From the sequence record NC_054933.1: DNA of 64,000 nt; one strand, given 5' to 3'. The translations under genes and the position numbers were made by a program. Source of the stretch: Escherichia phage teqhad. Below, piece after piece: positions 31,529 through 44,406 of this stretch. The stretch's first letter is position 1; every line of letters starts with the position of its first letter. The notes under the pieces are model-generated. The model saw only the letters and a program-made list of their open reading frames with translations, had not been told where the DNA came from and searched no databases.

Positions 31529-32110
31529 CTAACCAAGCTTTTTAGTTAATTCATTCCAATGTTTTCTACACAAAGAAACATAAATTTCATCACCAATACA
31601 GATTTGATTACCTTCTTTAACTGGTGTTCCATCTTCCATTAATCGAGCTGTCATAATCGCTTTTTTACCACAATGACAAACTGCCTTTAGTTCAATAAGT
31701 TTATCTGCAATCGCTAAAAGTTCTTTAGAACCTTCAAACAATTTTCCAGCGAAATCAGTCCTTAATCCATAAGCCATAACAGGAACATTATATGTATCAA
31801 CAATTCGACTCAATTGATGCACTTGTTCAGTTTTTAAAAACTGAGCTTCATCTACAAATACGCAATGAATATCTTTTTGTGCTTCAGCCCATTTATAGAA
31901 CTCAAAAATATCCATATCATCCGTAATAATATTCGCTTCCTGCTTAATTCCAATACGAGAAACGACTTCACAGACAGAATCGCGAGTATCAATAGCAGGC
32001 TTAAGAACTAATACACTCATTCCACGTTCTTTATAATTATGTGCAGCAGTCAAAAGAGAAGCAGATTTTCCAGCATTCATTGCTGCATAAGTAAAAATTA
32101 AACTCGCCAT
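31529..32110 (-). CDS. tk: thymidine kinase
   Basis: 193 aa; P-loop AAMNAGKS; Zn-binding CHCGKK...C..H. Confidence 0.92.
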   Translation of the reverse strand: MASLIFTYAAMNAGKSASLLTAAHNYKERGMSVLVLKPAIDTRDSVCEVVSRIGIKQEANIITDDMDIFEFYKWAEAQKDIHCVFVDEAQFLKTEQVHQLSRIVDTYNVPVMAYGLRTDFAGKLFEGSKELLAIADKLIELKAVCHCGKKAIMTARLMEDGTPVKEGNQICIGDEIYVSLCRKHWNELTKKLG

Positions 32111-32300: not shown

Positions 32301-32482
32301 AAGGAATTTATATAATTAATAAGTTCTTGTTCTTTATTATCGAATTCTTTAGAAAGTTCTTCGTACTCGTTTGCACTAAAAGGACCGCATTCATTACAAA
32401 CTTTTTCCAATTCACTATTTTTATCCATAACTTCGTGGATAAGAGAAAAGAGTTTGTCTTTTTGTTCTTTGCTTAGGCTCAT
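32297..32482 (-). CDS. small protein, ~60-aa paralog family member
   Basis: 61 aa, MSLSKEQKDKLFSLIHEVMDKNSELEK... Confidence 0.5.
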   Translation of the reverse strand: MSLSKEQKDKLFSLIHEVMDKNSELEKVCNECGPFSANEYEELSKEFDNKEQELINYINSL

Positions 32483-32652
32483 ATATTAATTTCCAGAAGT
32501 TTTAAAATAATTCGCTTTTGCTTAAATATTTCCACAGTTAAATGATCAGTATCTTTTTGACCAATTCCAATGGCAAAACCTTTATTAACAGCGAGTTCAA
32601 TTAAATTATCAAGTTCACGTAACACTTCATATTGTAACTCAGAACTATTCAT
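32479..32652 (-). CDS. small ORF (57 aa), ATGA-coupled on both sides; below track cutoff
   Basis: ATG 32652-32650 overlaps the upstream stop; MNSSELQYEVLRELDNLIELAVNKGFAIGIGQKDTDHLTVEIFKQKRIILKLLEINI. Confidence 0.45.
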   Translation of the reverse strand: MNSSELQYEVLRELDNLIELAVNKGFAIGIGQKDTDHLTVEIFKQKRIILKLLEINI

Positions 32653-32882
32653 TTTGGTTCACCTTGTTTTACAAAGTCTGGATACGGTTGAAACCCGGAA
32701 TAGAAACCTTCACCGGTATGATTTGTACATCCTTTATTGGAGCAATAGCAATAGCACCAATAATCAAAATCACATATCATTTCATCGTTACATAAAGTAA
32801 AAACAACAGGCCATTTACACTTTTCACAATGGGCATTTTTAAGAATACTAGTTTGGCTCATAACCATGTAACCTTTAAGCAA
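32649..32882 (-). CDS. cysteine-rich small protein
   Basis: 77 aa with 10 Cys (CEKCKW...CYCYCSNKGC). Confidence 0.5.
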   Translation of the reverse strand: MLKGYMVMSQTSILKNAHCEKCKWPVVFTLCNDEMICDFDYWCYCYCSNKGCTNHTGEGFYSGFQPYPDFVKQGEPK

Positions 32883-33070
32883 TATTCTTCTACATGTTGT
32901 TTACGACCTTTCTTATCAATAAAGGTATATTCAACGAATGTTCCAATGTAGTCTTTATCTACATCATGTGGACTATTAATTGGACATTTAGTACGGCAAA
33001 TGCGTTCCCATTGACGAATAATTTCCACTTTGTTTTTAGGATCAAACGGATGTGGGTAATGTACTTTCAT
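32858..33070 (-). CDS. hypothetical small protein
   Basis: 70-aa ORF. Confidence 0.45.
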   Translation of the reverse strand: MKVHYPHPFDPKNKVEIIRQWERICRTKCPINSPHDVDKDYIGTFVEYTFIDKKGRKQHVEEYCLKVTWL

Positions 33071-33521
33071 AATCCACCACTATTAAATCAATATCAGGAG
33101 TAAACATGTCGATTAATTTAGAAACCTTATCCCAATCGCCGCCAGCAATACCACAACCTATGCGTGGAATGTAAATTACCGGTTTAAACAAAAGGGTTTC
33201 TGCCTGTAGATTTAATTCTATCATGCAGTTTACTAAAGCACCATAATCAAGATTAGGACCCGGTTCGTATTGCGTATACAAATTATAGCATATACTAAAT
33301 CCTGTGGGATTATGTTTAAAAACAATAGACATATCGCCTAATTTATCACGAGAACCGTACTCAGTAGTGGTTTTATCTATTTCTAAAATTTTGGGATAGG
33401 CTCTTGCTAATTGACCAGCTACACCTGAACCCATAGTATGAAAACAATTGCACCCGTGCGCAATAATATTACCTTGAAGAAATAGGGCGACAATATCGCC
33501 CTTGATATATTTTACAATCAT
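33042..33521 (-). CDS. macro-domain protein (ADP-ribose binding/processing fold)
   Basis: 159 aa; KGDIV...IIAHGCNCFHTMGSGVAGQLARAYP and PRIGCGIAGGDW match macro-domain glycine-rich motifs. Confidence 0.65.
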   Translation of the reverse strand: MIVKYIKGDIVALFLQGNIIAHGCNCFHTMGSGVAGQLARAYPKILEIDKTTTEYGSRDKLGDMSIVFKHNPTGFSICYNLYTQYEPGPNLDYGALVNCMIELNLQAETLLFKPVIYIPRIGCGIAGGDWDKVSKLIDMFTPDIDLIVVDYESTLPTSV

Positions 33522-33859
33522 CTAGTACTCAATCCTCGATTATAAGAATCTACCAAACGGTCAACCATTGAATGACAAGCGGCTTTATCTTTCTCCTCCG
33601 CAACTGAACATTCTAAGGTATTCCACTTTTTAGCATATCGTTTTAACAATGTATCATTTTTGTATCTGCTTGATTTATCTCTTTCTCCGTCTTTATATGC
33701 ATATATTAATTTCTGCGCAAATTCAGCTTGGCATGCTTTATTTTTCCCGCAATAATCCGCTGCAGTACGGTTTACATACTCTCTAATTTCAGTATATGAT
33801 GTATCTGCTAACGCAGAAAATGAAATTAATCCTATACATAAAACCAAAATTTTAGTCAT
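33518..33859 (-). CDS. small secreted Cys-containing protein
   Basis: 113 aa; signal peptide MTKILVLCIGLISFSALA; four Cys. Confidence 0.5.
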   Translation of the reverse strand: MTKILVLCIGLISFSALADTSYTEIREYVNRTAADYCGKNKACQAEFAQKLIYAYKDGERDKSSRYKNDTLLKRYAKKWNTLECSVAEEKDKAACHSMVDRLVDSYNRGLSTR

Positions 33860-34397
33860 TTACTATTTCCAAAAGTTTATTATTTTTAAGGTAATTAGCC
33901 TTTTCTAGGACTTCAGAAGCATATTTAGAACCTGCTTTAACATTCCATCCCGAATTATAAGAGGATATTGCTTTTCTTATATCGCCCTTATGTATATTTA
34001 ACCAATAAGAAAGTTCAATGTACGCCCAGGAAGCTGAATTGGACCGTTTATTCAACATTCTTTTTATTTCAGCATCGGTCATATTATAACCAAGTTCCTT
34101 AACTCTTGCTCGCATAGTAGGCAAATAATTTTGGAACATTCCATAAGCGTGATGCTTTGGTTTAGATTTTAAATTAACTCCGCCAGAGCTTTCTTGCCAT
34201 AAAATAGCAGCCATTATATGACCCAATCCGCTCTTGTGGATATTTTTGTGTGTTTTATATTTTCCATCCTTAGAAAATTGTTCCCCGAATTGATACGCGT
34301 AACGCATGTTATCGAGTTGGACATTACTGAAAGTATGCTCGGAGCTATGTGCCATCATTGAAATGGCCAATAGACCAGCGAGTAGTGCTTTTCTCAT
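33852..34397 (-). CDS. secreted lytic-transglycosylase-like (SLT-domain) protein
   Basis: 181 aa; signal peptide MRKALLAGLLAISMMAHS; ILWQESSGG...YGMFQ resembles the SLT catalytic ES...GLMQ motif. Confidence 0.55.
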   Translation of the reverse strand: MRKALLAGLLAISMMAHSSEHTFSNVQLDNMRYAYQFGEQFSKDGKYKTHKNIHKSGLGHIMAAILWQESSGGVNLKSKPKHHAYGMFQNYLPTMRARVKELGYNMTDAEIKRMLNKRSNSASWAYIELSYWLNIHKGDIRKAISSYNSGWNVKAGSKYASEVLEKANYLKNNKLLEIVND

Positions 34398-34404
34398 GCT
34401 TACC

Positions 34405-34866
34405 TCATTGAGTTTTAATTACTGCTTTAGAAGCCTTTCCTGGTAAACGACGACTGTTGATAATTGCCATCCTGCATTGAAGTGACGGGTCTTTGAACTT
34501 CTCATTAGGCTTACAAACCGTAAATCCAAGCCAAAGATTTCCATCTGTGATTTCTAAACGTCCAGGACGATATTCAACCCCATCAATAAAATCCTCGTCA
34601 ATGTCAGGACGCGGAGGCATACTCAGGAATTCATTAACTTCTAAAACATGGTCTTTTATTTTATGGAATAATTCAAAAACATATGTCTCATCAATCTCCC
34701 GTTGAATTGCACGATCAAGAAGATGTTGAGAATATTTTAGATGAAACGATGAGACTCCTGCTGCTTTTGATGCCTCACGAATCTCATTGTTAATTTGACG
34801 AAACTCCGACTCAAAGTGACGACGAAGCTTATTTCGACGGATAAAAACTTCTGTATTGATAGTCAT
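34405..34866 (-). CDS. regB: RegB endoribonuclease
   Basis: 153 aa, MTINTEVFIRRNKLRRHFESEFRQINNEIREASK... recognised as T4 RegB. Confidence 0.9.
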   Translation of the reverse strand: MTINTEVFIRRNKLRRHFESEFRQINNEIREASKAAGVSSFHLKYSQHLLDRAIQREIDETYVFELFHKIKDHVLEVNEFLSMPPRPDIDEDFIDGVEYRPGRLEITDGNLWLGFTVCKPNEKFKDPSLQCRMAIINSRRLPGKASKAVIKTQ

Positions 34867-34925
34867 GTTGTTCTCCTCTTAACTGATAGAAAAATTATAC
34901 CACAGTCAAGAGGAAAAGTAAACAG

Positions 34926-43458: not shown

Positions 43459-43534
43459 TGGTCGAGGCAGTAGGGATCGAACCTACGACCCAGGACTTAG
43501 AAGGTCCTTGCTCTTCCTTCTGAGCTATGCCCCG
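43459..43534 (-). tRNA. tRNA-Arg (anticodon UCU)
   Basis: Manual fold: acceptor CGGGGCA/UGCCUCG, anticodon loop CUUCUAA, T-arm GUAGG-UUCGAUC-CCUAC, CCA encoded. Confidence 0.8.
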
Positions 43535-43538
43535 TAAT

Positions 43539-43614
43539 TGGGGTGACCGATGGGAGTCGAACCCATGACTACGAGAATCACAATCTCGAGTTCTACCAAC
43601 TGAACTACGGCCAC
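43539..43614 (-). tRNA. tRNA with anticodon GUG (His by anticodon; C73 present, no encoded G-1)
   Basis: Manual fold: acceptor GUGGCCG/CGGUCAC, D-stem GUUC/GAAC, anticodon stem CGAGA/UCUCG, loop UUGUGAU, T-loop UUCGACU, CCA encoded. Confidence 0.6.
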
Positions 43615-43728
43615 ATTAATACCTACTCCAACAATCAAGATGTCTTCACACGAAATTAAGAGAAGAGTGATCAGTTCAACCCCTATAATCGCGTCAAGTA
43701 GATATTAATGTGACAGTTGTCACAAATT

Positions 43729-43803
43729 TGGCGGACGTGATAGGATTCGAACCTATAACCAATCGCTTAACAGGCGATCGCTCTGCCATTGAGCTACACA
43801 TCC
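43729..43803 (-). tRNA. tRNA-Asn (anticodon GUU)
   Basis: Manual fold: acceptor GGAUGUG/CACGUCC, anticodon stem AUCGC/GCGAU, loop CUGUUAA, T-arm AUAGG-UUCGAAU-CCUAU, CCA encoded. Confidence 0.7.
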
Positions 43804-43807
43804 AAAT

Positions 43808-43894
43808 TGGTGGGGAGTGGTGGAGTCGAACCACCCGAGTCGCAATGACAATGGATTTACAGTCCACACCGCTACCTCTACGGGATAACTCCCC
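43808..43894 (-). tRNA. tRNA-Tyr (anticodon GUA), long variable arm
   Basis: Manual fold: acceptor GGGGAGU/ACUCCCC, anticodon stem GUGGA/UCCAU, loop CUGUAAA, T-arm GGUGG-UUCGACU-CCACC, CCA encoded. Confidence 0.65.
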
Positions 43895-43907
43895 TTAATT
43901 CTTAATT

Positions 43908-43982
43908 TGGTGGCCCTGGGTGGAATTGAACCACCATCTGGCGATTATGAGTCGCTTGCTTGAACCTTCCAGCTACAGGGCC
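43908..43982 (-). tRNA. tRNA with anticodon CAU (Ile-type as in T4, or Met)
   Basis: Manual fold: acceptor GGCCCUG/CAGGGCC, anticodon loop CUCAUAA, T-arm GGUGG-UUCAAUU-CCACC, CCA encoded. Confidence 0.65.
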
Positions 43983-43983
43983 T

Positions 43984-44059
43984 TGGTGCTGATTGACGGA
44001 ATCGAACCGCCGACCTTCTCATTACAAGTGAGTTGCTCTACCTACTGAGCTAAATCAGC
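43984..44059 (-). tRNA. tRNA-Thr (anticodon UGU)
   Basis: Manual fold: acceptor GCUGAUU/AAUCAGC, D-stem GCUC/GAGC, anticodon loop CUUGUAA, T-loop UUCGAUU, CCA encoded. Confidence 0.75.
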
Positions 44060-44064
44060 AAAAC

Positions 44065-44154
44065 TGGCGGAGGCGATAGGATTTGAACCTATGAGTCGCC
44101 GGAGCGACTGCCGGTTTTCAAGACCGGTGCATTAAACCACTCTGCCACGCCTCC
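44065..44154 (-). tRNA. tRNA-Ser (anticodon UGA), long variable arm
   Basis: Manual fold: acceptor GGAGGCG/CGCCUCC, anticodon stem CCGGU/ACCGG, loop CUUGAAA, T-arm AUAGG-UUCAAAU-CCUAU. Confidence 0.75.
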
Positions 44155-44156
44155 AG

Positions 44157-44230
44157 TCTCCATACAAGGATTTGAACCTTGGACCTCCTGATCCCAAATC
44201 AGGCGCTCTACCAAACTGAGCTACACGGAG
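44157..44230 (-). tRNA. tRNA-Pro (anticodon UGG), CCA not encoded
   Basis: Manual fold: acceptor CUCCGUG/UAUGGAG (G-U pairs), anticodon stem CCUGA/UCAGG, loop UUUGGGA, T-arm CAAGG-UUCAAAU-CCUUG; 2 nt from tRNA-Ser. Confidence 0.7.
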
Positions 44231-44240
44231 TAAATTAAAT

Positions 44241-44314
<74 letters not shown>

Positions 44315-44319
44315 AAATT

Positions 44320-44406
44320 TGGTGCGAGAAGTGGGACTCGAACCCACAAGGAAATCATTCCGCAGCATTTTAAGTGCTGTGCCTTTACCAATTTGACCAT
44401 TCTCGC
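44320..44406 (-). tRNA. tRNA-Leu (anticodon UAA), long variable arm
   Basis: Manual fold: acceptor GCGAGAA/UUCUCGC, anticodon stem CAGCA/UGCUG, loop CUUAAAA, T-arm GUGGG-UUCGAGU-CCCAC, CCA encoded. Confidence 0.75.

Follow-up and report, generated by a model that had tools for sequence, protein, structure and literature searches.

The Tk.4 (AdfM) macrodomain protein of Escherichia phage teqhad: an apparent glutamine-type active site and a probable role against the DarT2 toxin

Between tk and regB, Escherichia phage teqhad (NC_054933.1; the window analysed here is a stretch of 64,000 nucleotides) encodes a single-domain macrodomain protein of 159 amino acids (aa) that is the ortholog of Tk.4 (AdfM) of phage T4. 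The gene, its fold, its orthology and synteny with T4 tk.4 and its pattern of active-site residues are direct observations. We think it fairly probable that this protein hydrolyses the thymidine-ADP-ribose made by DarT2 on single-stranded phage DNA, with a chemistry like that of the Streptomyces coelicolor protein SCO6735; that the window allele, 58% identical to its T4 counterpart, acts like T4 Tk.4 and does so by hydrolysis is argued by analogy, the phenotype and the Gln mechanism both being taken from relatives. The gene and its counter-defence role are already known, and hundreds of public genomes contain this very allele. To this we add some modest side results, i.e. a probable Gln-type active site that is not that of DarG, two subclades that go under the name AdfM, and a dimorphism of tk.4 alleles.

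The open reading frame (ORF) had initially been annotated, from the letters and the ORF translations, as a macro-domain gene between tk and regB on account of two glycine-rich motifs, and it does lie there (Table 1), with both GDIVALFLQGNIIAHGCNCFHTMGSGVAGQ and PRIGCGIAGGDW in its translation. It is not a chance ORF, because the Pfam Macro profile (PF01661) matches its residues 22–136 with E=2.8e-8 and 34.1 bits (gathering score, 22), PHROG 335 matches it with E=2e-71, our protein collection contains 795 homologues and tblastn finds matches in 2781 phage records. An AlphaFold2 model built from a 48-sequence alignment presents the macro fold with high confidence (predicted local distance difference test, pLDDT, 94.7; predicted template modelling score, pTM, 0.89), including the three alpha/beta/alpha layers and the two Gly-rich ligand loops, and Foldseek aligned it with 161 macro structures of the PDB at E<=1e-3. 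Profile and fold searches (Pfam, PDB, Foldseek, AlphaFold2) thus all recovered the fold whose absence from profile searches the initial annotation had named as evidence against itself. The closest structures were Bacteroides BT1257 (2afc, score 18.4), Mycobacterium tuberculosis (Mtb) DarG (17.7), yeast Poa1p (17.2), human TARG1 (16.8) and T. africanus DarTG (16.7); the best match from other macro classes was a coronavirus X-domain (13.7), followed by lower values for MacroD-type, PARP, PARG and macroH2A domains. A sequence search of the PDB gave the same neighbour set as Foldseek. Since BT1257, DarG, Poa1p and TARG1 are the nearest neighbours in both structure and sequence, the protein belongs, within the Macro superfamily, to the ALC1-like (TARG1/DarG/SCO6735/Poa1p) class.

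The window is from a Tequatrovirus, and the ~2-kb region around the ORF is 97–98% identical to many Tequatrovirus genomes. Its gene order (regB, vs.1, vs, tk.4, tk.3, tk.2, tk.1, tk) is the same as in T4, where the position between vs and tk.3 is occupied by tk.4 (NP_049723, 155 aa), labelled 'phosphatase; contains A1pp phosphatase motif'. The annotation of T4 tk.4 as a macro/A1pp protein goes back many years. The two proteins align over 155 aa at 58% identity (E=8e-71) and have all family-invariant residues in common, so that both homology and synteny place the window ORF in the Tk.4/AdfM orthologous group; a protein of Shigella phage Shfl2 that is 99.4% identical to it is also annotated 'Tk.4'. 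The initial annotation had suggested looking for a T4 ortholog at this position, which is present, but had recognised neither that the ORF was tk.4 nor that the active site was of the Gln type. It had also described the gene as flanked by two signal-peptide proteins, one of them SLT-like; both exist (Vs and the SLT-like Vs.1), but both lie on the 5' side, the other neighbour being Tk.3.

Residue conservation was counted in the 120 listed homologues, with identities down to 39%, each count referring to the homologues that cover the column. The reference sequences of Mtb DarG, TARG1 and Poa1p agree with their PDB entries over the full length, those of T. aquaticus DarG, BT1257 and SCO6735 were taken from printed alignments, and that of PhiKZ gp104 is the translation from the methods section of PMC13309987; the spatial placing of Q84, H22, N25 and D49 derives from alignments and not from model coordinates. 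The catalytic Asn and Gly positions, on which the initial annotation had staked its macro assignment, are kept, i.e. N25, G31/G33 and G122/G124 are conserved. In the alignments H22 corresponds to His24 of SCO6735 and His23 of Poa1p, N25 to Asn27 of SCO6735 and Asn23 of PhiKZ AdfM (see below), and G122 and G124 to G126 and G128 of SCO6735, while P119, G122, G124 and W130 are found in every covering homologue and are invariant in the 48-sequence alignment. Asp49 (33375–33377) is also invariant (120/120 Tk.4-clade proteins), and its counterpart is Tyr in DarG, PhiKZ gp104, Poa1p, BT1257 and SCO6735 and Leu in TARG1.

The key difference among these proteins lies at the end of the strand N80-L-Y-T-Q84, which aligns with N-F-P-T-K of DarG (Lys80), L-I-T-K of TARG1 (Lys84) and F-P-T-K of PhiKZ gp104, and with N-M-I-G-Q of SCO6735 (Gln85) and BT1257. 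MAFFT and hhalign agree on the Q84 column, hhalign placing NLYTQ over NMIGQ of SCO6735 (probability 98.7) and over NFPTK of Mtb DarG (97.9). The Lys84/Asp125 dyad of human TARG1 (OARD1; 4j5r) corresponds to Gln84/Ala126. By these alignments Tk.4 has a predicted Gln-type centre and is not a DarG-type Lys enzyme. TARG1 and DarG have a catalytic lysine in common (PMC8883491); SCO6735 lacks it and yet 'readily' reverses thymidine ADP-ribosylation by DarT, its mutants Q85A, Q85E and N27S have lost all or nearly all activity (Q85A/E all of it), and the mechanism proposed for it is water-mediated, with Gln85 positioning the distal ribose (PMC9411070). This use of Gln85 explains the residue pattern of Tk.4, in which the Lys is missing.

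The same columns bear on the 'phosphatase' label of T4 Tk.4, according to which the protein would be a hydrolase of small-molecule ADP-ribose derivatives, either a Poa1p-like ADP-ribose-1''-phosphate phosphatase or an O-acetyl-ADP-ribose deacetylase, that clears by-products of RNA repair or sirtuins or degrades ADP-ribose-based immune signals. We consider such a function unlikely. The label comes from a motif match and not from an assay, and Poa1p (6lfq) has Ser at the invariant Gln; of the three residues probed there by mutant structures, His23 is retained as H22, Ser30 lines up with Thr29 and Phe152 (F152A mutant structure 6lfu) with Ala126. In addition, loss of the T4 ortholog has one known effect, which is to make the phage sensitive to a toxin that modifies DNA, and, to our knowledge, T4-type tRNA repair by polynucleotide kinase and RNA ligase makes no ADP-ribose 1'',2''-cyclic phosphate (Appr>p), which also counts against this function.

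Genetic support for a role against DarTG2 comes from T4. In a preprint of November 2025, tk.4 was the single significant hit when a transposon library of T4 was screened on a host that expresses DarTG2, a clean T4 tk.4 knockout was also sensitised to DarTG2, and the gene was renamed adfM, for anti-DarT factor Macrodomain (bioRxiv 10.1101/2025.11.20.689424). This result fits the finding that T4 lacking both adfA and adfN stays DarTG2-resistant (PMC11825919). PhiKZ gp104, also named AdfM in a 2026 paper, removes thymidine-linked ADP-ribose (T-ADPr) in vitro, and its mutation N23A lowers activity (PMC13309987). We retain hydrolysis of thymidine-ADP-ribose as the preferred function. Tk.4 would be an ALC1-like ADP-ribosyl-glycohydrolase, free-standing and with a single domain, and its production probably falls early in infection; when the host toxin DarT2 attaches ADP-ribose to thymidines in single-stranded phage DNA, Tk.4 would strip it off and replication could go on. 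Asn25 would keep Gln84 in place, Gln84 in turn the distal ribose, and water would do the hydrolysis, a chemistry that would differ from that of the Lys-dependent DarG, TARG1 and PhiKZ AdfM.

Reversal of ADP-ribosylation had been part of the initial annotation, directed either at host ADP-ribosyltransferase defences or at the phage's own modifications; the T4 genetics with DarTG2 bear out the former, while the latter (Alt/Mod) found no support. In a broader form, the protein would remove ADP-ribose from protein or RNA, tuning or reversing the Alt/ModA/ModB marks of the phage (RNAylation included) or countering host toxins, CmdT for example, that modify RNA or protein. Arginine is the residue modified by Alt and Mod, and we know of no ALC1-like macrodomain that cleaves this linkage, which counts against the first of these roles. 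SCO6735 and TARG1 do de-modify proteins as well (PMC9411070), and the mRNA ADP-ribosyltransferase CmdT targets T-even phages (PMC11618068); a search of this CmdTAC paper for macrodomain counter-defence gave mentions in the reference list only. Given also that the T4 transposon screen returned tk.4 specifically with DarTG2, we hold a protein or RNA substrate to be improbable as the main one; it could exist alongside the DNA role and need not replace it.

Several points weigh against the DNA role itself. For the authors of the preprint, hydrolysis of DNA-linked ADP-ribose only 'seems likely' (bioRxiv 10.1101/2025.11.20.689424). The anti-DarTG2 phenotype belongs to the T4 allele, from which the window allele differs at 42% of positions. 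SCO6735 (5e3b) and BT1257 (2afc/2fg1) are Gln-type ALC1-like proteins with which the window protein aligns at Q84, N25 and H22 (Q85, N27 and H24 of SCO6735), but the hallmark of their subclass is a mobile basic loop (Lys89), five residues longer than in DarG/TARG1, together with Lys34. The DNA-contacting Lys34 is Ser32 in the window, and Q84 is followed by an acidic loop (YEPGPNLDY, with Glu86 and Asp92) that is ~6 residues shorter than that of SCO6735 and BT1257 and has no equivalent of Lys89; the isoelectric point (pI) is 5.0 for the window protein, against 9.7. The catalytic Gln of the subclass is thus present and its long basic loop is not, and SCO6735 and BT1257 are chromosomal whereas Tk.4 is viral. 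The fit to the DarG model of PADLOC is poor too, at 28 bits, where Mtb DarG reaches 263 and PhiKZ gp104 reaches 133. Finally, ALC1-like macro domains also act on proteins and small molecules, and reversal of DarT2 may be neither the only nor the original role of Tk.4.

Two objections to a DNA substrate were examined and discarded: the missing Lys is not fatal to DNA de-ADP-ribosylation, since SCO6735 has an essential Gln there and the same substrate, and the acidic pI does not exclude DNA, since PhiKZ AdfM is equally acidic and yet active on it. We also ruled out an orphan DarG antitoxin, as suggested by the wording of the preprint. DarG (Mtb, 5m3i; T. aquaticus, 5m31) and PhiKZ gp104 have F-P-T-K with the catalytic Lys where Tk.4 has N-L-Y-T-Q. 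The NCBIfam DarG model (NF048014) gives the window protein 28.7 bits against a cut-off of 250, over model positions 2–142 of 338. The catalytic Lys80, a score above the model cut-off, the two-domain architecture and a darT neighbour are all missing from the window ORF, which has no C-terminal DarT-binding domain (159 aa against DarG model lengths of 329–338) and is adjacent to vs and tk.3 instead. PhiKZ gp104, in contrast, is a true DarG-like Lys-type macrodomain. The two proteins named AdfM therefore belong to different macro subclades, as indicated by F-P-T-K versus N-L-Y-T-Q and by the DarG scores.

One last reading is that protection is mainly non-catalytic, by binding and inhibition of DarT2 or by shielding of the modified DNA. 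Catalytically dead SCO6735 Q85A, DarG K80A and TARG1 K84A do inhibit DarT in vitro, SCO6735 most strongly (PMC9411070). However, H22, N25, Q84, G122 and G124 are invariant in all covering homologues, down to the most distant, which argues for selection on the enzyme chemistry, and the DarT-binding domain of DarG is absent here; we regard this reading as very improbable.

A toxin partner was also sought beside bacterial homologues: P0091 has no ADP-ribosyltransferase neighbour and the Pelagimonas copy lies among housekeeping genes, and the P0093 copies are on phage-like contigs. On the metagenomic phage contig ERR3585466_24226 (541–888 and 5001–5447), a Tk.4-clade macro gene lies ~4 kb from a gene of the Acb5 family (PF26761). 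Going by the family name, Acb5 acts against CBASS (cyclic oligonucleotide-based antiphage signalling system), and the locus may be an anti-defence neighbourhood; the contig, phage-like in content, also has ribonucleotide reductase (RNR) and dUTPase genes.

The comparison with T4 revealed a concentration of differences in one gene. While rI, rI.1, Tk, Tk.1, Tk.2, Vs, Vs.1 and RegB are 97–100% identical between the two phages, the values are 93% for Tk.3 and 58% for Tk.4. A 30-nt sliding comparison delimited a divergent block (Table 1) that takes in Tk.4 from residue ~37 onwards, as far as its C terminus, plus the codons at the start of tk.3 that overlap it; the sequence on either side is 93–100% identical to T4, and in the sliding comparison the first ~36 codons of tk.4 and all that lies upstream of them reach 80–100%. 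Accordingly, most of the differing residues come after residue 36, where identity is ~46%. The second Gly loop reads IGCGIAGGDW in the window and IGAGIGKGNW in T4, and the C terminus of the window protein is longer by four residues, which overlap tk.3. This pattern of identity has the look of one allele having replaced another, with a junction that falls within the gene. Among sequenced phages neither allele is rare: in GenBank, 311 records carry a window-type tk.4 at least 90% identical, and for the T4 type there are 224 records at least 90% identical and 159 at 80–90%. A bolder view, which we consider doubtful, is that the Gln centre, the short acidic loop and the invariant Asp49 together make the Tk.4 clade a catalytic variety of its own, the third among ALC1-like macrodomains, and that its two alleles, which circulate in Tequatrovirus genomes nearly identical elsewhere, reflect an arms race.

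Table 1. Location of the tk.4 ORF, its motifs and the surrounding features in the window.
Feature	Position	Strand	Evidence or remark
tk	31529–32110		99% identical to T4
57-aa ORF	32479–32652	minus	between tk.2 and tk.3
Phage_zn_bind (PF23895) protein, ~70 aa	32649–32861	minus	between tk.2 and tk.3
Tk.3, DUF7202	32858–33070		3' neighbour of tk.4
Divergent allele block	~33010..33412		~30–80% nucleotide identity to T4; 30-nt sliding identity
tk.4 / adfM ortholog, 159-aa single-domain macrodomain protein	33042..33521	minus	ATG start, ORF listing
tk.4 3' end / tk.3 start, 29-nt overlap	33042–33070	minus	coordinates
P119-R-I-G-C-G-I-A-G-G-D-W130, second glycine-rich loop	33132..33167	minus	alignments
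N80-L-Y-T-Q84, strand ending at catalytic-Lys position	33270..33284	minus	Q84 in 120/120 homologues
G31-S-G33-V-A-G36, first glycine-rich phosphate-binding loop	33414..33431	minus	G33, A35 invariant; G31 in 108/120
H22-G-C-N25-C motif	33444..33458	minus	H22 and N25 in 118/118 covering homologues (of 120)
ATGA overlap, vs stop codon / tk.4 start codon	33518..33521	minus	coordinates and sequence
Vs, 113 aa, signal-peptide-like	33518–33859	minus	5' side of tk.4
Vs.1, 181 aa, signal-peptide-like, SLT lytic transglycosylase domain (PF01464, E=1.4e-5)	33852–34397	minus	5' side of tk.4
regB	34405–34866		100% identical to T4
Best sigma-70-like promoter match, TTTACT-17-TATAAT, TG in front	34894..34922	minus	upstream of regB; consensus only

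The ATGA overlap of vs and tk.4 suggests translational coupling. A perfect palindromic hairpin, AGGGCGATATTGTCGCCCT, occupies codons 7–13 of tk.4 (33484–33502, minus strand) and is identical in T4, and a stem predicted in the 3' end of vs (33519–33560, minus strand) takes in the Shine-Dalgarno sequence and ATG of tk.4; both could be linked to translational coupling or to RNA processing. An early promoter for the regB-vs.1-vs-tk.4 run may lie upstream of regB, where the best sigma-70-like match is found. A scan of the region gave 15 matches, with 16.7 expected from shuffled sequence and hence no excess, and for this reason the expression timing of tk.4 is put forward here as inferred.

Other features of the neighbourhood deserve mention. 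Vs ('valyl-tRNA synthetase modifier') starts with a signal-peptide-like segment, MTKILVLCIGLISFSALA, which one would hardly expect in a protein whose stated target is a cytoplasmic enzyme; in the HIDEN-SEQ preprint vs was the most depleted gene in minimal medium (bioRxiv 10.1101/2025.11.20.689424). Two small ORFs between tk.2 and tk.3 (32479–32861, minus strand) have no T4 counterpart and are annotated in Shfl2 as similar to RB51 orf110c and orf111c; the Phage_zn_bind protein likely starts at the ATG at 32861 and not at the TTG at 32882 given in the ORF listing. Further away there is a cluster of 10 tRNA genes (43459–44406, minus strand; Arg, His, Asn, Tyr, Met(CAT), Thr, Ser, Pro, Gly, Leu), a set that differs from that of T4, which we take to be eight (Gln, Leu, Gly, Pro, Ser, Thr, Ile, Arg).

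As to what these results mean, hundreds of phage records probably carry the 'phosphatase' label in error. AdfM as a name covers both the Lys-type PhiKZ gp104 and the apparently Gln-type T4 Tk.4, so that conclusions about mechanism should not be carried across from one to the other. Two tk.4 alleles, 58% identical and set in a neighbourhood that is 97–100% identical, amount to a natural experiment on the specificity of counter-defence and on the host range of therapeutic T4-like phages. If the arms-race view were true, the alleles might differ in specificity, e.g. for DarT variants or for other DNA or RNA linkages of ADP-ribose, or one of them might evade a host factor by which AdfM is sensed or blocked.
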